NCBI GenBank assembly: GCA_029776995.1 | Contig: JAKOTZ010000030.1 | Coordinates: 4,355 to 68,354, forward strand | Direction: 5' to 3' | From: Candidatus Hydrogenedentota bacterium | Lineage (GTDB): Bacteria > Hydrogenedentota > Hydrogenedentia > Hydrogenedentales > CAITNO01 | Length of the DNA: 64,000 nucleotides | Shown here: piece by piece, positions 6,814 through 33,977 of the stretch | Numbering within the stretch: position 1 is the first letter of the stretch | Layout of the letters: each line of letters starts with the position of its first letter | Program-made: the position numbers and the translations under genes | The notes under the pieces: model-generated | The model's database searches: none | Told to the model about the DNA's origin: nothing | Seen by the model: only the letters and a program-made list of their open reading frames with translations

Positions 6814-7325
6814 AGATCGAGAAGGTCGTCGTCGAGCAGCTGGGCGCGGTCTTCCGCACACCCACGCTGGTGGCCAGAACGTTCATGTCCGCCCGGAATC
6901 AGGAAGACGAGGAGCGCCGCCGCCTGAACGATGAACAGGCGCGGCTCAGGTCGGAATTGAAGGCGCTTCAGGACGAGGCGATCCAACTCGTGCGTGACGG
7001 CGGCGACGCCGACAGGATTATGGAACTGAACACAAAGGCATCCTCGGTCGGCCACGACCTCGACCGGATCGAGCGCGATCTGGCTGGACTCGGTCAGAGC
7101 AACGTCACCGAGCATGACGTCGCCGAGGCCTTCGGTTCGCTTGAGGAATTCTGGGAGGTGCTGTTTCCAACCGAGAAGCAACGTATCGTCCAGACGCTGG
7201 TCGAGCGGATCACGGTCTGGCCGGATGGACTCGATCTGAAACTGAAAGCCGTGGGTGTCGTGGGACTGGTCGCCGATCTGAACGCCTATGCCGACGAGGC
7301 GCGGCAGCGGGGAGGCCAATCATGA
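6804..7325 (+). pseudogene. C-terminal remnant of a large serine recombinase (integrase)
   Basis: AGEIEKVVVEQLGAVFRTPTLVARTF, a coiled coil, FWEVLFPTEKQRIVQTLVERITVWPDGLDLKL; catalytic N-terminus missing. Confidence 0.85.
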
Positions 7326-8310: not shown

Positions 8311-8663
8311 TGGTGGAGGCGGCGGGAATCGAACCCGCGTCCGGAAGTGCTTCCACGAGCGTATCTACGTGCGTAGCCTTTCTTTTAGGTCATCGCCACC
8401 GGCGCGCGCGTCAGGCGCGCTCACGCCGGCCGCCAGGCGGCTGAGCGTCCTTCCCGGGCAGCCGCCGTCATCCCGGGTCGGAGCCCGCTGTCGCCGTCCC
8501 GTTCCGCTAGCGGGCGGTCACGGAAGGGACGGGCGGCCGTTATTAGGCCGCCAGCGCCAAGTTGTCGTTGGCAGTTATTGATTTTCCCGCTTTTTACGAG
8601 GCCAGCGGGTCCTCGGCACGCAACACTCGCTTCTTCCACCCCCGTCGAAACCGGGACGCCCCC
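8311..8663 (-). ncRNA. ssrA: tmRNA (SsrA), proteolysis tag (A)ANDNLALAA
   Basis: 5' GGGGGCGUCCCGGUUUCGACGGG; 3' GGACGCGGGUUCGAUUCCCGCCGCCUCCACCA with a G3.U70 pair; tag frame GCC AAC GAC AAC TTG GCG CTG GCG GCC TAA TAA at 8572-8540. Confidence 0.97.
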
Positions 8664-8705: not shown

Positions 8706-8714
8706 ATTATACCA
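8706..8714 (-). promoter_or_regulatory. Extended -10 promoter (TGG TATAAT) for ssrA
   Basis: The minus strand reads TGGTATAAT about 43 nt upstream of the mature tmRNA 5' end. Confidence 0.6.
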
Positions 8715-20472: not shown

Positions 20473-22767
20473 TCAGGGGGCAATCCGTCGGGGCACCGCC
20501 AGCCCATCCACAGGACCATACAGGGCTCCTCCGGCGGCAAGGCGTCCCTGGGCCTGGCAGGAAAAGACCGCCCGATCCTCAGAAACAGCCGCGGGAGCTG
20601 TAATCCGGGCGGTAAACGTCAGGGGCAGCGCGGGCGGCGTAATCCACGCGAACTCCACTGCGCTGCCGTCAGCCCGGATGATGGGTGGCGCGGAACCGTT
20701 CAGGATACCGCCCCAGATCCAGCCCTCCGGCAGGGTGAGCACGGCGCCCAGCGCGGACAGCGCGGTACCGCCTGCCCGTGACAGGGTAATCGTAATCTGC
20801 TGATCCTCTCCCGGCGTAAAACACTCCGGCGATATAGCTGAAAGCTGCGCCGCGACCATCGTGTCCAGACCGCCCAGCGGGACCAGCCGGCTTTCAGCGG
20901 GAATACCGGCTCCGACAGACCCATCCGCAAATTGATATTGAACCGTCCCGGATATGGCAGGTATGCCGTTCACCTGAGCGGGCGGACTGATCCGGTAAAC
21001 GGCAGTAAAGGGAAACGTTTCAGGGGCTGTCCAGGAGAATACCAATGTCCCGGATGCGCCTATTTCGGGCTGAACTCCCGGGTCTCCGCCCGATTCCATG
21101 CCGGAGAATGTCCACCCCTCCGGAAGTGTTTCCTGGAGGGTAAGCGTACTGACCTGCCTGCCGCCGCGTTTGTCGAAAGATACGGAAATGGATACCGTGC
21201 CGCCCGGTTCAAAGGCAACCAGCGGAGAACGGCGCAGGTTGACCACGGTTTCCGCGGCATAATCCGTTTCCGGGTTGGCTGGCGGTCCCAGCGATACGGT
21301 CAGCAACACGGCGCTTCCCGGAAGAACGGATGCGCCGGCCGGAGGAAACTGCGCGGCGACACGATCCGCGGGCGTGTCGGTCCGGTGTTCCCAGAAGACA
21401 TCGCCCTGAACCAAGCCGGCACCGGCCAGCGCGGCGGACGCGGCATCCAGATCCAGCCCAGTAACCGACGGAACCGTAACCCGCGGGTCAGACGGATCGG
21501 TCGGCGCGGCCGGATATAAGGTTCCTACAAAAGGGCCGGAGGTTAACTCCGTGGCGATTGTCCTGAACAGAATCGTTCCCGTAAATCCTGCCTGGCCTGA
21601 AGCGTCCGGCGGAGGCCAGACCTGGTACGTAAAAGAACAGGGAAGCGGGGGAATATCAATCCAGGCGAATTCGGCATCCTGGCCGTTCTGCCGGAAGACA
21701 GGAGGCGCGCAGTCTCCTGACACGTTTCCCAGCGTCCATCCGGGGGGAAGGGTTTCCCGGATACCGATGCTGGAGAGCGGAAATATTCCCGTATATGCCG
21801 CCGTCAGGACAACTGTCACCGGCTCTCCGGGAGTGTAAACGCCGTCCGTGGAAAATTTCCGGATCAACATAGCGGAGGCATCCGTGCCGGTACTGCCATT
21901 GCCGGTTGTGGCGGGCAGCTCGCCGATTACCGGCCCATAACTCAGGCTGCCTGCGTCAAAACGGTAGAACAGCGTGCCGCTGAATACCTGGTTTCCGGAC
22001 AGGTCGGCGGGCGCCCGAACCCGATAAGTAAGGCTGACCGGGAAAGCCGGTATAGAGATCCACGCGAATTCCAGATCCCGGCCATTCTGGCGCGCATTAT
22101 CCACGGTCCCGGAGACGATTCCTTCAAAAACCCAGTCGGGAGGAAGGGTTTCCACCAGTCCCAGGGCGGTTATTGAGGCTGTCCCGCTGTACTCCAGGGT
22201 CAGTGTAATGTCTACCGGCAATCCCGGCGAGCAGGCGGACACGCTGAACGCGCGGGTGAAGCTTGGCTGAACTTCCTGGGTTCCACCTCCACCATCTCCC
22301 CCCCCACCATCTCCCCCGCCCCCATCCCCTCCGTCGCCCCCATCATCGCTTTCATCCGGCGCGAATACGCGCACAGTCTGTTCGGCGGAACGGCTGCCCA
22401 GCGGCGTGGACGCGGTCAGCCTGACGGTATATTCTCCCGGCTGTTCAAAGGTGTGGAGCGGTCCTGTTTCCGTGCTGTCCGGGGTTCCGTCTCCAAATTC
22501 CCACCGCCACTTTACCGCAAACAGCCCAAGGGGATACCGCTGTGGCGTCTGGTTCTGGCACAGCACTGTAAGAGGAGCTACTCCCTCCGCGGGATTCACC
22601 GTAAATTTTGGGTTTGGCGCGCCCTGCGGCCCGCAACTGACCGCGAACCACGCCAGAGACCCCATCAGCAGCCACAGCCATCCAGGCCACATAACCGGTT
22701 TTTCCTGCTGGGATGCGGGAGAATCGTCAGGAGGATTCCCCGGCTGTTGGAACCATACTGTATTCAT
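20473..22767 (-). CDS. Surface/lipoprotein: PKD domain, Gly-rich linker, four repeats of about 120 aa and a PASTA domain
   Basis: WRWEFGDG...HTFEQPGEYTVRLT (PKD); VPSVTGLDLDAASAALAGAGL (PASTA); repeats with (E/L)TLP.(G/D)W and (EF/FS)xW; exact start uncertain. Confidence 0.82.
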   Translation of the reverse strand: MNTVWFQQPGNPPDDSPASQQEKPVMWPGWLWLLMGSLAWFAVSCGPQGAPNPKFTVNPAEGVAPLTVLCQNQTPQRYPLGLFAVKWRWEFGDGTPDSTETGPLHTFEQPGEYTVRLTASTPLGSRSAEQTVRVFAPDESDDGGDGGDGGGGDGGGGDGGGGTQEVQPSFTRAFSVSACSPGLPVDITLTLEYSGTASITALGLVETLPPDWVFEGIVSGTVDNARQNGRDLEFAWISIPAFPVSLTYRVRAPADLSGNQVFSGTLFYRFDAGSLSYGPVIGELPATTGNGSTGTDASAMLIRKFSTDGVYTPGEPVTVVLTAAYTGIFPLSSIGIRETLPPGWTLGNVSGDCAPPVFRQNGQDAEFAWIDIPPLPCSFTYQVWPPPDASGQAGFTGTILFRTIATELTSGPFVGTLYPAAPTDPSDPRVTVPSVTGLDLDAASAALAGAGLVQGDVFWEHRTDTPADRVAAQFPPAGASVLPGSAVLLTVSLGPPANPETDYAAETVVNLRRSPLVAFEPGGTVSISVSFDKRGGRQVSTLTLQETLPEGWTFSGMESGGDPGVQPEIGASGTLVFSWTAPETFPFTAVYRISPPAQVNGIPAISGTVQYQFADGSVGAGIPAESRLVPLGGLDTMVAAQLSAISPECFTPGEDQQITITLSRAGGTALSALGAVLTLPEGWIWGGILNGSAPPIIRADGSAVEFAWITPPALPLTFTARITAPAAVSEDRAVFSCQAQGRLAAGGALYGPVDGLAVPRRIAP
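22283..22345 (-). repeat. Coding low-complexity repeat (GGD/GGGGD)n
   Basis: Encodes DDGGDGGDGGGGDGGGGDGGGG. Confidence 0.8.
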
Positions 22768-27889: not shown

Positions 27890-30826
27890 TCAGGGTATCG
27901 CTTTGCCGTTGAATACCACGCGCAGCCCATCATGCGTCGGGTTGGGCGCGTAGCGAAGCGACACCCCTTCCGGCGCGGACGCGGTGATGTGAAGGGTATC
28001 GTTATCGAGCCGCCAGTCCACGGAAACCACGCCTCCCGCCAGCGCGGAAGCGCCTTTGGCCCAGGTCAGGCCGGTTATCCAGGGACTGACGCGCACCGTC
28101 GTACCCCCCGGATTTTCCGGGACAATGCCCAGCACGATCCGGTTCAGGAAGTGAATGGGCGCGGAAGACCACGCGTGGGTGTGACTTCTGGTGGGGAAGC
28201 CTCCGCTGCCGGTTGTTCCGCTCGGGAAGCTTTCCCACACCGTGGTGGCCCCGGAATCGACCATGGGCCCGTAATATTCGCGGATGGCGTTCAGGATAGC
28301 GTCAATTTTGCCGCATTTTTCCAGGGCTTCGAACTGATACATGGCGGCAAAGGGCGATCCCAGGCGGGTCACGTCTTCGCCAGGATTCAGGATAATGTCC
28401 AGCAGCCGTTCCCGGCGCTCCTCCGGCGCAGCGTCGTACAGGAGAGCAAGGAACGCCGTGTGCACGCAAGTCTTGGGACTCAGGGTTCCATCGCCCCGCA
28501 CCGCGTCGGGATAGGCGCCCCTTTCGGCATCCCAAAGCCCCTCCACGGCATTTCGCAGCTGTTCCCGGTATTGGCGCAGCCACGGCAGATGTTCCGTATC
28601 TCCGATGGCTTCCCCAACCGTAATGGCCGCGTCCGCAGCGCCGATGGCAAAAAGGCTGTTGTGGGTAACCGACGCGTGCCCGTCGTCGATGCCGGTCCAG
28701 TCAAACATGTTCCAGAAGGGCGCGCTGAAAAGCCCCCGGCTGTCCGTAAAATTGGCCGCGCCCCGCAGATTCTTCACCATCCAGGGATAGGCCCAGCGGA
28801 CGAAGTCCAGATCTCCCGTGTAGTCATAATAATCCCGCACCATGACGCTCCACAGGAAACTCCACGCGGGCAGCAGGGTTTCCCAGGTGGAAGGGACCTG
28901 GCACAGCACGATGGGATGTTTTTCCAGGGACCACGCGGCCAGCCGGATACAGCGCCGCGCGATGTCCGCCGCGCCAAAAGCGGTATAGGCAAACACCGCC
29001 TCGTTGCGCGCGTCGCCCACCCACAGCGTCTGTTCATACAGGGGGCAGTCGGTGAAGGTGTCTTCCATGCAGAGTTTCAGGGTACGGGCCGAAATCTCCC
29101 AGGTTTTGGTAAAAAGCGGGTCGCTGCAGGCGAAAGACCCCAGGGGCTGAACCGGATAGGTGGATTCAATCAGCCGGATTCCGCGCAGGATGGCCGGCCG
29201 GGTCTGGTTCCGCAGGGTTACAAACAGGTACCGCTGGGACCGGCGGGTGAGGCTGGTAAACGTCTGCCGGCCCTCCCGGCAGACATAACGCATCGCGTTC
29301 CGGTAGGATCCCGTGTGCTGTACCCTGCCGTCCGGGGCGATGTATTCCACTCCGGCCAGGTCAACGACCAGCCCGCTTTCCGCTTCCAGGTCCAGGCTGT
29401 AATATCCGACATTCTGCTCCCCGAGGTCGAATACCAGTTCCACGTCGCCATCAGACTGGGGCGGGATTTTCAGCGGCGCGTCTCCCGACAGGAACGCGTT
29501 GGTATCGCCCAGGGTGTCCGTGATCTGCCGAACGGGCTCCCGGGAAGTGAACAGCCAGTGTACCGCCTCGGTCCACTCCTCCGGGCCAATCAGCCGGCTG
29601 CCTTCGGGAAGCGGCTTTTCCCGGAAAGATTCCGGCCGGCTCCACGTTTCAATGGCCTGATCCAACCCTTTTTTCAGGCGGTTTTCCACTGCCGCGCGTT
29701 CCGCGTCGGACAGCAGGGCCCATTTCCAGTCGGATTCCAGGTATTTTCCGTCCGGCGCGGGGATGTAAATCCAGGGTTTTTCCGCACTGCCGTCCACGGG
29801 GGATACCAGGCGGAACGGCTGATCACACCGAACACGCACCTCGGTGTCGTAATGCCAGTGGCTGAACCAGCGGGAAAGGGCGACATTGAGCAGATGGCGC
29901 CCTGCCTCCAGCGGCATGCCTCGGGAGGGAACCCGTTTGCCGTCCACCAGGGCGGTCTGCGCGCCCGCGTCCACCTGAAGCGTGCCGGGCTGTTCCAGCT
30001 CCACGGCAACGGCATAGATGCCCGTGACCGCGGAATGGTTGTTGGTGGGCACCACCGCGCTGTACAGCCACGGCGCGGTGGGGAATATAAAGGTATGCCA
30101 GTCGCTGCGGCGGACGACGGAGGCCGCGCTCAGGGATTTAAAATGGCGCGGAATCCGGGTCAGCATGGGCACGTCGCGAAGCCAGAGGTTCTTCCAGGGA
30201 CTCTGGCCGGCCGGATATTTCTCGGCAGCCGGCTGAAACTCGCCGGATCCTTCTTTTCGGGCATCGTAGATCTCAAACAGGCCCATCTGAACGGATTGTT
30301 TGGGTACCCAGCGCAGCCATTCCGCGGCTTCCCGCGCCTCCCAGGAAGCATCGGTTACGATCCGGATCGGCGGGCGGGCGGAATCTCTGGGCGCAGCCTC
30401 CAGCGTGGCGAGCAGTCCCGGCTCCTGGGGCAACTGGTGGAAGGTGCCGATGCCGAAAAATTTCGCGATGACAATCAGTTCGTTTTCCCCGGCGCGCGCC
30501 TGGCCGGTTACGTCTATCCGGTCGTACTGGTAGTGGTCGGGCCAGCTTCGGGCGGGGCCGTCTCCCACCCATTCGCCGTTGAGCAGCGCGCGGTACGCCG
30601 TATCCGCCGTAATCCGAAGGGTTACCCGCGCCGATTCCGGCAGGGAAAATACCTTCCGGAAAATGACCGTGTCGTTATAGGGAAAAAATCCCTCCGGCAG
30701 CGCCCGCCAGATCCATTTGGCGCCCTCCCAGCTGAAGTCCCGGTCCGCCTGCAGATCATCCGCGGAAGTCAGGGTTCCCAGGCAAAGTACAGTAAGTCCC
30801 GTTAACAGGTGATGGGGCAGATACAT
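27890..30826 (-). CDS. Exported alpha-L-rhamnosidase-like glycoside hydrolase (GH78)
   Basis: Signal peptide; ITADTAYRALLNGEWVGDGP, DCPLYEQTLWVGD, GATTVWESF, SHTHAWSS; SD AAGGAAG upstream of the ATG at 30826. Confidence 0.85.
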   Translation of the reverse strand: MYLPHHLLTGLTVLCLGTLTSADDLQADRDFSWEGAKWIWRALPEGFFPYNDTVIFRKVFSLPESARVTLRITADTAYRALLNGEWVGDGPARSWPDHYQYDRIDVTGQARAGENELIVIAKFFGIGTFHQLPQEPGLLATLEAAPRDSARPPIRIVTDASWEAREAAEWLRWVPKQSVQMGLFEIYDARKEGSGEFQPAAEKYPAGQSPWKNLWLRDVPMLTRIPRHFKSLSAASVVRRSDWHTFIFPTAPWLYSAVVPTNNHSAVTGIYAVAVELEQPGTLQVDAGAQTALVDGKRVPSRGMPLEAGRHLLNVALSRWFSHWHYDTEVRVRCDQPFRLVSPVDGSAEKPWIYIPAPDGKYLESDWKWALLSDAERAAVENRLKKGLDQAIETWSRPESFREKPLPEGSRLIGPEEWTEAVHWLFTSREPVRQITDTLGDTNAFLSGDAPLKIPPQSDGDVELVFDLGEQNVGYYSLDLEAESGLVVDLAGVEYIAPDGRVQHTGSYRNAMRYVCREGRQTFTSLTRRSQRYLFVTLRNQTRPAILRGIRLIESTYPVQPLGSFACSDPLFTKTWEISARTLKLCMEDTFTDCPLYEQTLWVGDARNEAVFAYTAFGAADIARRCIRLAAWSLEKHPIVLCQVPSTWETLLPAWSFLWSVMVRDYYDYTGDLDFVRWAYPWMVKNLRGAANFTDSRGLFSAPFWNMFDWTGIDDGHASVTHNSLFAIGAADAAITVGEAIGDTEHLPWLRQYREQLRNAVEGLWDAERGAYPDAVRGDGTLSPKTCVHTAFLALLYDAAPEERRERLLDIILNPGEDVTRLGSPFAAMYQFEALEKCGKIDAILNAIREYYGPMVDSGATTVWESFPSGTTGSGGFPTRSHTHAWSSAPIHFLNRIVLGIVPENPGGTTVRVSPWITGLTWAKGASALAGGVVSVDWRLDNDTLHITASAPEGVSLRYAPNPTHDGLRVVFNGKAIP

Positions 30827-30989
30827 GACGACTTCCTTCCATAACGGTTGAATGGATACTAGCCTGCATTGTGGAGCATCCATAGCGCCCGGCGCAACCC
30901 GTCACCGGGTTCACGCGACTCGCAGCCGGCCGGTATCCTTTGCCGTTTCACTCCCTGCCATGCCATGTCGCACCAGCTCCGCCTCGCAT

Positions 30990-31019
30990 TTGCGGCATAA
31001 GGGCGGAGCGGATTATAAT
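30990..31019 (+). promoter_or_regulatory. Sigma70-like promoter for tRNA-His/hisS
   Basis: TTGCGG-N18-TATAAT, 16 nt upstream of the tRNA. Confidence 0.65.
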
Positions 31020-31035
31020 AAGCCCGCTTTTGGGT

Positions 31036-31112
31036 GCCGGGATAGCTCAGTTGGTCAGAGCGCTGGATTGTGGATCCAGAGGTCCTGGGTTCGACCCCCA
31101 GTCCCGGTACCA
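31036..31112 (+). tRNA. trnH: tRNA-His (GUG); no encoded G-1; G1.U72 pair and A73; CCA encoded
   Basis: Cloverleaf GCCGGGA/TCCCGGT, D-stem GCTC/GAGC, anticodon stem CTGGA/TCCAG with GTG at 31070-31072, T-arm CTGGG-TTCGACC-CCCAG, then A CCA. Confidence 0.96.
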
Positions 31113-31186
31113 TTTTCTATGGGGGCGCGCCGGAGCCGCCCGCGGTGGAGGGGGCGTTGCGCGGCGGCCGGTGGAAAGGGTGCTTC

Positions 31187-32623
31187 GTGCCGGGAATCGT
31201 TCCGCAAACACTGAAGGGATTTCAGGATCTCCTGCCGGATGCCATGACGGTCCGGGAGGCGGTGGTGTCCATCATCCGGGACACGTACGCGCGGTTCGGC
31301 TTTCAGCCGCTGGAAACCCCGATACTGGAACGGCTGGACACGCTCACCGGCACCACAGAGGGAGAAACGGGAAAACAGATTTTTACCCTGGAAACGCCCG
31401 AATCTGAAGCCGCGGCTTTGCGCTTCGACCTGACCGTACCCTTCGCGCGGGTGGTCAGCCAGTACCGGGACCGGATCCGGCTGCCGTTTCGGCGGTTCCA
31501 CATCGGTCCCGTGTTCCGCGCGGATAAACCGGGGCCGGGGCGGTTCCGTCAGTTTACCCAGTGTGACATCGACATCGCCGGCGCGCGGGGCGTTGACGCG
31601 GATGCCGAGATCATCGCGGCGCTTTGCGAAGCTTTTCGGGCGCTGGGCCTGGGCGGACAGCCGCCGAAGTATCAGGTTCGGGTCAGCAGCCGAAAGCTGG
31701 TGGACGCGCTGCTGCAGGGATACGGGGTCACGGAGCCGGCAACGCTGAAGCATACCCTCCGGGTGATGGACAAACTGCAAAAAGTGGGGCTGGAGAATGT
31801 GCGGCTGGAGCTGGGACCGGGACGGATAGACGAATCGGGTGATCCGATCCCGGGCGTAGGACTGGAAGCCGGCCTGATTGACCGCATCGCGGATTTTGTG
31901 GGCATCAGCGCGCCGGACCGAAAAACAATGCTGGCCTTACTTACGGAACGGCTGCCGGATACCGAATCCGCCCGGGACGCCCTGGCGGAAATGGCGGAAC
32001 TGGACCGGTGCCTTGAAGCCCTGGGACTGAGCGATGAAGAAGTCTGTTACGACCCCAGCCTGACCCGCGGGCTGGATTATTACACGGGACCGGTGCTGGA
32101 AGTGGCGCTTCCCGGCGCGCCGGAATTCGGTTCGGTAGGGGGAGGCGGGCGGTACGACGGACTTTGCGACCGTTTCCTGGAAGAACCGATCCCCGCGACA
32201 GGGGCTTCCATTGGTTTGGACCGTTTAGTGGCGGCGCTCGTTCACCTGGGACTGGCTCCCGCGCCGGACCGGCCGATCCACGCCTGCGTGGTCACGGTTG
32301 GTAACGTGCCGCGGGAGGAGGTGTTGCGCCTGGCGGCGGAATTGCGCGCCGGCGGATTAAATATTATTACGTTCCCGGGCGCGAAAAAAGGGCTGGGGGC
32401 CCAGTTGTCGCTGGCGGACCATTACGGCATACCCGCGGCCGTCGTACTGGGCGAGGACGAACTGGCCCGGGGCGTGGTTGCCGTCAAGGACCTGGCCATG
32501 GGAAAGGCGATCCGCGAAAACATAGCGGACCATGACGCCTACCGGCGGGCAGGGCGGGAAGCCCAGGTTACCGTTCCCCGGAATGAAGCCGCGGAACGGA
32601 TCCGCCGGATCACCGGCGCGTAG
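31187..32623 (+). CDS. hisS: Histidine--tRNA ligase, alphaproteobacterial-type variant
   Basis: KGFQD, ALRFDLTVP, FRADKPGPGRFRQFTQCD, LTRGLDYYTG, GGGGRYD, GASIGLDR; GTG start with SD GGAAAGGG. Confidence 0.95.
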   Translation: MPGIVPQTLKGFQDLLPDAMTVREAVVSIIRDTYARFGFQPLETPILERLDTLTGTTEGETGKQIFTLETPESEAAALRFDLTVPFARVVSQYRDRIRLPFRRFHIGPVFRADKPGPGRFRQFTQCDIDIAGARGVDADAEIIAALCEAFRALGLGGQPPKYQVRVSSRKLVDALLQGYGVTEPATLKHTLRVMDKLQKVGLENVRLELGPGRIDESGDPIPGVGLEAGLIDRIADFVGISAPDRKTMLALLTERLPDTESARDALAEMAELDRCLEALGLSDEEVCYDPSLTRGLDYYTGPVLEVALPGAPEFGSVGGGGRYDGLCDRFLEEPIPATGASIGLDRLVAALVHLGLAPAPDRPIHACVVTVGNVPREEVLRLAAELRAGGLNIITFPGAKKGLGAQLSLADHYGIPAAVVLGEDELARGVVAVKDLAMGKAIRENIADHDAYRRAGREAQVTVPRNEAAERIRRITGA

Positions 32624-32645: not shown

Positions 32646-33977
32646 TTATTCATCCGGGGGCTGACGGGCTTCAATCAGTTTCCGCGCCAGGGCCAGGCCC
32701 GCTTCGCGGGTGGAAAAGACTCCTTCGATCTGCCGTTCGTGCAGCATCTGCAGCAATTCCCGATAAGCCGGACCGGGCGGCAGGCCAAGCGCTTTCAGGT
32801 CGTCCCCGGTAATCAGCGGCGGCGGCAGCGGCTGGGCGGGCGGCTCGTGCGACAGGTATTGCCGTATCCACTCGATGACACTCGTATCGCCGTGGCTCGC
32901 AAGGCTGTCCAGCCGGCCCAGCTCCACCAGCAGCGGAAAATCCGGTTCGCGGGAAAACCGTTTGCGTTTCCCTTCGCGCATATCCGGAAACGCGGCCAGC
33001 CGCATGTGGTTGCCCACCAGCCAGGCGATCCGCTCGATCCGGCGGTTCGGGAATCTCAGCCGCCGGCCAATGCCGTGTACCATCTGTTCACCGACTTTTT
33101 CGTGGTAGTGGAACCGGATCCGGTCCGCGTAAGTGATTGTGCGCGGCTTGCCGCAATCGTGGAGCAGCGCCGCCCAGGCCAGCTCCACGGGGGCATGCGG
33201 CGGCAGCAGGTCCAGCATGCGGAGGGTATGTTCCCATACGTCCCCTTCGGGATGAAAGGCTTCCGGCTGGGGCACTCCCTTCAGGTCGGCGATTTCCGGC
33301 AGAATCAGGCTCAGCAGGCCCGACTCGGAAAGCGCTTCCATGGCCCGCCGGGCGCCGCCTTCGGTGAGCATGCGGTCAAGCTCTTCCCGGATCCGTTCAG
33401 CGCTCACCCCCTGCAGCCCTTCTTCCGCGGTGACCTGTTTCAGGGCATCCCAGGTTTCCGGGACAATGCGGAAATTCAGGGCTGAGGCGAATCGAATGGC
33501 CCGCAGCAGCCGCAGCCGATCCTCCAGAAATCGTTCCCGGGGATTGCCCACGCATCGGATAACCTGGTTCCGCAGGTCTTCCAGCCCGCCGGTAAAGTCG
33601 AGCACCTGGTCCGTGGCAGGATCCAGGAATAAGGCATTGATGGTAAAGTCCCGGCGCATGGCGTCTTCGCGCGGGGCGGCATAGGCCACGCTGTCCGGGT
33701 GGCGGCCGTCCTGGTACGCGCCGTCCCGGCGGAAGGTAACCACATCGATTTCTTCCCCGTCCTGCAGCACTTTAACCACCCCAAAGGAAAGCCCGACCGG
33801 CACAATGCGGGGAAACAGGGCGCGGACCTCTTCAGGCGTGGCGTTGGTGGCCACGTCATAGTCCTTGGGCGACCGGCCCAGCAGCCTGTCGCGGACGCAC
33901 CCTCCCGCGAACAGGGCCATAAAGCCATGCCGCCGAAGCGTGTCACATACTGTCAGCGCTGAGGACAGGGTGCTCAT
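32646..33977 (-). CDS. cca: CCA tRNA nucleotidyltransferase / poly(A) polymerase family with HD domain
   Basis: GGCVRDRLLG, DYDVAT, RRDFTINAL, EDRLRLLRAIRF, HPEGDVWEHT, LLHDCGKP. Confidence 0.9.
   Translation of the reverse strand: MSTLSSALTVCDTLRRHGFMALFAGGCVRDRLLGRSPKDYDVATNATPEEVRALFPRIVPVGLSFGVVKVLQDGEEIDVVTFRRDGAYQDGRHPDSVAYAAPREDAMRRDFTINALFLDPATDQVLDFTGGLEDLRNQVIRCVGNPRERFLEDRLRLLRAIRFASALNFRIVPETWDALKQVTAEEGLQGVSAERIREELDRMLTEGGARRAMEALSESGLLSLILPEIADLKGVPQPEAFHPEGDVWEHTLRMLDLLPPHAPVELAWAALLHDCGKPRTITYADRIRFHYHEKVGEQMVHGIGRRLRFPNRRIERIAWLVGNHMRLAAFPDMREGKRKRFSREPDFPLLVELGRLDSLASHGDTSVIEWIRQYLSHEPPAQPLPPPLITGDDLKALGLPPGPAYRELLQMLHERQIEGVFSTREAGLALARKLIEARQPPDE

Follow-up and report, generated by a model that had tools for sequence, protein, structure and literature searches.

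The 64-kb stretch of Candidatus Hydrogenedentota DNA analyzed here (the window, 64 000 nt in full) contains a tRNA-His gene placed directly ahead of hisS, the gene of histidyl-tRNA synthetase (HisRS). We judge it likely that this locus is a small tRNA-mRNA unit which encodes both halves of a histidine identity system independent of the extra 5′ G (G-1) of tRNA-His, and that it represents a multi-phylum arrangement. The order of elements proposed in the initial annotation, a TTGCGG-N18-TATAAT promoter followed by the tRNA, a 74-nt spacer and hisS, is present on the + strand as described. In the following list, G000 is the window's own genome and G001 a second genome of the same genus, g1 (HisRS 87% identical).

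30988..30998, + strand: −35 block ATTTGCGGCAT, with the hexamer TTGCGG at 30990-30995; identical in G000 and G001, flanks diverged.
31011..31019, + strand: −10 block GATTATAAT, with TATAAT at 31014-31019; likewise identical in both genomes between diverged flanks.
31036..31112, + strand: tRNA-His(GUG), found by ARAGORN; 71.4 bits with Rfam RF00005.
31113..31186, + strand: 74-nt G+C-rich spacer without a terminator-like or promoter-like site.
31164..31185, + strand: block GCGGCCGGTGGAAAGGGTGCT, conserved between G000 and G001, containing a probable Shine-Dalgarno sequence, GGAAAGGG.
31187..32623, + strand: hisS, 478 amino acids, GTG start; TIGR00442 E = 2e-101, 339.8 bits, above the curated cut-off.

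Both partners have the features of a G-1-independent pair. The tRNA gene has T at position −1 (31035), a G1:U72 pair, A73 and an encoded CCA; its acceptor strands read GCCGGGA...TCCCGGT-A-CCA. The motif-2 loop of the synthetase, RADKPGPGRFRQF (KPGPGRFRQF), has Gly at the position of the G-1:C73-reading Gln, while 72 loci of the nearest canonical HisRS have the loop RPQ[KR]GR[FY]RQF. The Gln-to-Gly exchange in this loop is a signature of alphaproteobacterial HisRS no longer needing G-1:C73 (PMC3937112); the Caulobacter enzyme recognizes A73, U72 and the anticodon (PMC3064791), and the Caulobacter tRNA-His/HisRS pair is orthogonal (PMC3064791, PMC3875453). The window HisRS falls in the clade of Caulobacter-type enzymes (97–100 support in the SH-like approximate likelihood ratio test, SH-aLRT); by sequence, it is closer to the cyanobacterial, human and archaeal HisRS structures than to the E. 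coli/Thermus type. G000 is 97% complete and has 48 tRNAs, with one tRNA-His and one HisRS among its genes; the Thg1 family (PF04446) was absent from this 97%-complete genome, with a match obtained in a control genome. The assignment of the pair to the G-1-independent type, made earlier from the window alone, is thus upheld by the loop, by the A73/U72 tRNA and by the fact that the genome has no other tRNA-His or HisRS.

Co-transcription of the two genes appears to be likely and is the simplest reading of the locus, since a promoter of the type used by tRNA genes is conserved ahead of the tRNA, and the spacer has neither a terminator nor a second promoter. The −35 hexamer TTGCGG agrees with TTGACA at only three of six positions, which is why a generic sigma-70 scan is silent here. 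The pattern TTGnnn-N16-19-TAnnnT (mostly N18) was found within 70 nt upstream of 23 of the 46 tRNA/tmRNA genes of G000, against a background of 1.3% of random 70-mers, and the tRNA-His promoter (−35 hexamer, 18 nt, −10, then 16 nt to the tRNA 5′-end) is a typical member of this set. The spacing of 18 is retained in G001 amid diverged surrounding DNA. Enrichment at tRNA genes of G000 together with conservation of the blocks in G001 supports a real promoter. The intergenic spacers, 74 nt in G000 and 83 nt in G001, have only their last 21 nt in common, GCGGCCGGnGGAAAGGGTGCT, abutting the start codon; the GCGGCCGGTGGAAAGGGTGCT block is a probable ribosome-binding region, judging by its position and conservation. 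No hairpin with a T-run was seen in the spacer of either genome, and consensus scans of 31036-31186 gave neither TTGnnn-N16-19-TAnnnT nor any other promoter-like site. The spacer fold is not more stable than that of shuffled sequence (z = 0.49), and an Rfam scan of 30700-31400 returned the tRNA only, with no T-box or other known leader.

The unit might then work as follows. Transcription would be initiated from TTGCGG-N18-TATAAT ∼9 nt ahead of tRNA-His and would most likely continue across the 74-nt spacer, free of a terminator or second promoter, into hisS. RNase P and 3′ processing would release a tRNA-His starting at G1, with G1:U72 and A73 and without G-1; the rest of the RNA would be translated from the GTG at 31187, downstream of the conserved Shine-Dalgarno block. 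The synthetase, with Gly for the motif-2 Gln, would charge this tRNA via A73, U72 and the anticodon, as the Caulobacter enzyme does. Transfer of the two genes as a unit, considered below, is likewise a matter of inference.

Two observations concern the promoters of the window and its genome more generally. The TTGnnn/TAnnnT spacing of G000 tRNA promoters is mostly 18 nt, one base above the E. coli optimum. TATAAT occurs only five times in the 64-kb window; one perfect copy, at 8706-8711 (− strand), lies ∼43 nt upstream, on its strand, of a tmRNA gene (8311-8663, − strand; tag ANDNLALAA).

The pair itself proved to be order-wide. We use f1 for the window's own family, g1 for its genus and f5 for another family of the order. 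The loop KPG[PVL]GR[FY]R[QE]F, mostly KPGPGR[FY]RQF, was found in all 38 order genomes from which HisRS was extracted, and G1, A73 and an encoded CCA in all 30 extracted order tRNA-His loci. The −1 base in these 30 loci (T in 24, C in 3, G in 3) is always opposite A73; position 72 is C in the tRNA-His of genera g7 and g8. In 133 order genomes (species level), 126 had HisRS matches at 47–87% identity and five had no match; G097 and G099 had a match at only 35–36%, of the canonical type. The two genomes of the phylum that fall outside the order encode a canonical HisRS like that of E. coli (TIGR00442 475–487 bits) and a tRNA-His with G-1:C73. Therefore, the G-1-less system became fixed when the order arose or close to that point; the Hydrogenedentota pair is an old one and has been vertically inherited since.

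Linkage of the two genes is less conserved than the pair. In 17 genomes of families f1 and f5 (17–19 of ∼120 with the genes adjacent), tRNA-His precedes hisS on the same strand at a distance of 300 nt or less. In f1 these are G000 and G001 (g1), G007 (g7) and G008, G013, G017, G020 and G022 (g8); in f5 they are G037, G096, G083, G084, G088, G100, G101, G124 and G125. Two more f5 genomes, G122 and G123, have wider gaps of 363 and 539 nt; in the remaining Hydrogenedentota the genes are on separate contigs or 46 kb to 1.26 Mb apart. When more f5 genomes were added, each of the three basal branches in the HisRS tree of the order contained linked lineages. The survey of tRNA-His/hisS synteny that had been proposed gave a divided answer: linkage exists in at least 11 genera, and the genes are unlinked in ∼85% of the Hydrogenedentota that have this HisRS type; the system can therefore be maintained without linkage. 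Linkage is kept in some genera including g1, broken in most, and dispensable. The terminator-like hairpin between tRNA-His and hisS is missing only in g1 and several f5 genera, and in unlinked f1 genomes tRNA-His has a promoter of the same type upstream and a hairpin with a T-run after it. The shared promoter of the initial annotation thus remains plausible for G000 and G001, with their conserved tRNA-type promoter and terminator- and promoter-free spacers, and is less so for g7 and g8, where a hairpin with a T-run separates the genes.

The exceptional genomes G097 and G099 are labeled as the same genus as the linked genomes G037 and G096, but neither has the G-1-less tRNA-His or the KPGPG HisRS. 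Their HisRS is canonical (WRGERPQEGRFREF, PQEG loop), with the nearest outside relative in Gemmataceae at 72% identity, and is encoded at L401:1474-2954 (G097) and L402:1474-2975 (G099); ∼90 nt downstream of hisS, in the same orientation, there is a tRNA-His with G at −1 and C73. The contig is native, since the next gene shows a gradient of identity to congeners (82%, 73% and 65%; 60–61% in other genera). Here both partners were exchanged again, and again stand side by side. As to the donor of this canonical pair, the nearest outside HisRS loci have no adjoining tRNA-His, and the tRNA-His of G097 and G099 has its own native-looking promoter, TTGCGT-N18-TAATCT. The case supports the notion that the partners are replaced together and end up linked; arrival on one fragment is not thereby proved.

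Beyond Hydrogenedentota, we sampled the HisRS type by two motif scans, each matching at least 120 loci; the counts below are among the matches listed. Scan 1, for DNA encoding KPGPGR[FY]R[QE]F with one genome per species, gave nearly all RRCH Alphaproteobacteria among the matches listed. Scan 2 used a pattern leaving out the alphaproteobacterial DAD and the Hydrogenedentota xAG contexts; its matches were from Acidobacteriota, Acidimicrobiia, Planctomycetota, Zixibacteria, Coatesbacteria, Fidelibacterota, Ignavibacteriota, Myxococcota and others. HisRS of this type are monophyletic with respect to canonical relatives (97–100 SH-aLRT), with phyla intermixed: Hydrogenedentota are confined to one branch, Acidobacteriota, Planctomycetota and Zixibacteria are each split over three or more positions, and alphaproteobacterial sequences are nested inside the multi-phylum clade, not at its root. 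The comparison of HisRS and species trees has two sides: genus and family labels are reproduced within f1 and the tree is incongruent with phyla across the wider clade. An unbiased HMMER search of 1.8 billion representatives pointed the same way: the best ∼20 matches with a readable loop were all without Gln. Loops of the top matches were KPGPG, KPDPG, KPNPG and KPGAG; PQxG appeared from rank 21 and was in the majority after approximately rank 30. In 12 genomes of other phyla this type is the sole full-length HisRS.

Loci were counted as linked if a tRNA-His (A73, G1:U72) was directly upstream on the same strand, and fragmented assemblies were scored only if at least 250 nt of upstream sequence was available. 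Linkage was found at 37 of 43 scorable loci in Acidobacteriota, 14 of 16 in Actinomycetota, 3 of 3 in Planctomycetia, 3 of 4 in Zixibacteria and 3 of 3 in Pelagibacterales (SAR11; spacer 4–5 nt), at 1 of 17 in Phycisphaerae and at 0 of 95 in other Alphaproteobacteria. For all scorable loci of the type outside Alphaproteobacteria and Hydrogenedentota the count is 71 of 119. Canonical HisRS loci outside Hydrogenedentota were linked in none of 148 cases (no tRNA-His within 1.5–3 kb). If gene order were random, ∼1 genome in several thousand would be expected to have tRNA-His immediately ahead of hisS in the same orientation (an estimate). The spacer over 80 linked loci has a median of 50 nt, with a terminator-like site in six of them; going by this layout, the linked unit outside Hydrogenedentota can hardly be anything but an operon. 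The survey beyond the phylum therefore bore out what the initial annotation had asked of it, one scattered clade with linkage in most Acidobacteriota, Acidimicrobiia, Planctomycetia, Zixibacteria and SAR11 loci. The idea of linkage as a genus-level quirk was dropped, as the same order is found in many phyla (motif scans) and in family f5.

The tRNA-His-hisS order is widespread in this one HisRS clade and probably ancestral to it. By parsimony, the 126-row non-Hydrogenedentota clade was linked at its base. Distances between tRNAs and between HisRS at linked loci are correlated (Mantel r = 0.59 for all pairs, p <= 0.0005; r = 0.44 for between-phylum pairs, p <= 0.0005, computed on tRNA-His alone). 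At the Planctomycetota locus L304, both the tRNA and the HisRS are nearest to Blastocatellia. Widespread linkage in the clade fits a pair passed between lineages as one block, and the data suggest that the histidine-tRNA recognition rule can be inherited or exchanged in this form. The unit is specific to the G-1-independent system, and we see in it an obvious vehicle for a recognition rule that needs both partners to work. Our tentative reading, to which we give slightly less than an even chance, is that of a swappable two-gene module: the G-1-independent unit entered the ancestor of the order, as well as many phyla, replacing the canonical pair in one step; G097 and G099 swapped back; Alphaproteobacteria were a late recipient and not the origin. 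The cassette spreading between phyla, as first proposed, survives as an old multi-phylum arrangement and not as a recent mobile element in this genome. No recent mobility is indicated, because the G+C content of hisS equals that of its neighbors (0.61–0.66, as in the flanks) and no mobile-element gene flanks it.

Several points speak against the co-transcribed and transferable unit, in addition to the matching G+C content just given. No integrase, mobile-element gene, repeat or compositional anomaly was found at the unit. Among the contigs of three metatranscriptomes from the study holding the organism's DNA, none lay on the locus, and consensus scans could miss a weak promoter within the tRNA or spacer. 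The T at −1 could pair with A73, so that U-1 could be kept on the mature tRNA. Within Hydrogenedentota there are the ∼85% of genomes with the same pair unlinked and the terminator-like hairpin with a T-run between the genes in g7 and g8. The ancestral state of linkage at the Hydrogenedentota node is model-dependent: Fitch parsimony favors unlinked, the Mk model with outgroups gives 0.45–0.55, and a fit to the clade only favors unlinked. The cross-phylum sample was selected by motif; the trees are quick searches with SH-aLRT support only; and the taxon labels given to metagenome-assembled genomes by NCBI or submitters may be in error (several records labeled ‘Nitrospirales’ and ‘Sumerlaeota’ belong to Hydrogenedentota on their HisRS and in the grouping of the genome collection).

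Three other explanations were considered. The adjacency could lack function in this genome, tRNA-His being a single-gene unit and hisS having a promoter that went unrecognized in the 3′ part of the tRNA or in the spacer. The tRNA-His of unlinked relatives does have its own promoter and terminator, g7 and g8 retain a terminator beside hisS, a T4 run directly follows CCA in the window, and consensus scans are weak evidence. We nevertheless think separate transcription quite unlikely: 31036-31186 has no promoter-like site, the spacers of G000 and G001 both lack a hairpin with a T-run, and the sole conserved spacer block abuts the start codon and resembles a ribosome-binding site. In other phyla there is no room for a promoter, as spacers are mostly 25–60 nt and only 4–5 nt in SAR11. 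It is extremely improbable that the adjacency in g1 is a product of chance rearrangement. Rearrangements do occur around the unit, given that the upstream neighbor differs between G000 and G001 and the cca neighbor is found only in g1; yet tRNA-His and hisS have this order and orientation in at least 11 Hydrogenedentota genera and at least eight other phyla, and outside Hydrogenedentota the order never occurs with canonical HisRS.

One could also argue that hisS moved alone and the resident tRNA-His adapted to it, to be recruited repeatedly beside hisS by selection for co-expression or autoregulation. The ambiguous ancestral state in Hydrogenedentota and the gains of linkage that the tree needs agree with this, as do the linked SAR11 nested among unlinked Alphaproteobacteria, and the swap-back, where the nearest Gemmataceae HisRS has no adjoining tRNA-His and the tRNA promoter looks native. 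This explanation is fairly unlikely in our view. General co-expression pressure does not create linkage, because canonical pairs are linked in none of 148 cases; between phyla, tRNA distances are correlated with HisRS distances; linkage is basal to the 126-row clade by parsimony; and, from the Caulobacter data (PMC3064791), a lone incoming hisS is expected to charge a G-1:C73 tRNA poorly.

The neighbors of the unit are a glycoside-hydrolase-like gene and a cca gene; the gene upstream differs even between G000 and G001. Downstream of hisS there is the following feature.

32646..33977, − strand: class II tRNA nucleotidyltransferase (cca/pcnB family), NF009814 E = 3.9e-68, below the curated cut-off, with an HDIG domain.

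As had been pointed out, it converges on hisS, at 22 nt from the stop codon. It is an incidental neighbor: cca was rejected as a member of the unit, being downstream of hisS only in the two g1 genomes.

Some further observations were made on tRNA-His and hisS in other genomes. Copies of the 3′-half of tRNA-His are present 6–10 kb from the full gene (G046:C35:11097-11174 with 21457-21503; G134:C53:436-512 with 7160-7208), and one more copy is at G003:C162:33887-33937. Such half copies are what would be expected for islands integrated at tRNA-His; insertion at the 3′-end of this gene would separate it from hisS and could explain the repeated loss of linkage. All-ORF (open reading frame) clustering of flanks was too noisy in these high-GC genomes to date rearrangements. 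The HisRS of G098 (L395) groups with a family-f3 genome and not with its congeners G037 and G096, and f5 is not one branch; on tree position, this hints at exchange of hisS within the order.

In other phyla, the CCA end of tRNA-His and the hisS ATG are separated by only 4–5 A residues at the Pelagibacterales loci L160, L208 and L230. At L283, L316 and L334 (Planctomycetia), the linked tRNA-His reads CCTGYCG...CGRCAGG-A, which gives C1:G72 with A73 and not G1:U72; by its predicted pairing, this is a further acceptor-end variant within the same HisRS clade. Most loci of Thermoanaerobaculia and Holophagae have G at −1, facing A73 as it does in eukaryotes. Genomes of Vicinamibacteria, Blastocatellia and Pirellulales have a second HisRS-like ORF directly downstream of the linked hisS (G135:C2:2138734-2139840; G145:C113:103457-104908; G142:C11:146430-147032), which may be hisZ or a degenerate copy.

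The extra 5′ G of tRNA-His is regarded as a nearly universal identity mark. The sources cited here (PMC9976931, PMC3245924, PMC3064791) place the G-1-less bacterial system only in some Alphaproteobacteria; the bacterial exception is now seen across a whole Hydrogenedentota order and many phyla, in most of which the tRNA-His gene is directly ahead of hisS. This bears on the old puzzle of how an essential tRNA/synthetase rule could change without a lethal intermediate, as none is needed if both partners arrive together. For genetic-code engineering, many natural and potentially orthogonal HisRS/tRNA-His pairs become available in compact units.

The closest known system is the G-1-less pair of RRCH Alphaproteobacteria (Caulobacter crescentus type), reportedly described by Ardell & Andersson 2006 and Wang et al. 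2007, and treated by Yuan et al. (PMC3064791). Like that pair, the window has a tRNA without encoded G-1, with A73, G1:U72 and a GUG anticodon, and a HisRS of the same clade with KPGPGR[FY]R[QE]F for the Gln-containing loop. The window pair differs in its host, a member of Hydrogenedentota, and in having tRNA-His 74 nt upstream of hisS, whereas in Alphaproteobacteria 95 of the 98 loci that could be scored show no linkage of the RRCH-type genes. For SAR11, PMC3937112 cites Wang et al. 2007 as having discussed a joint transfer of tRNA-His and HisRS into that group. As in SAR11, tRNA-His immediately precedes a same-type hisS in the window unit, and joint movement is the idea in both cases; unlike the 4–5 nt of SAR11, its spacer is 74 nt.

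Two other systems share parts of this design. The pylT-pylS cassette is a tRNA with its dedicated synthetase, inherited or transferred as a block; as here, an orthogonal tRNA/synthetase pair is encoded side by side with a patchy, transfer-like distribution. The pyl cassette, however, adds a new amino acid and coexists with other pairs, while the window unit replaces the essential resident histidine pair. In the thrU-tyrU-glyT-thrT-tufB operon of E. coli, tRNA genes are co-transcribed with a protein gene. The window unit would be similar in having a tRNA at the 5′-end of an mRNA, to be freed by RNase P and 3′ processing; unlike it, the E. coli operon encodes a protein that is not the cognate synthetase.

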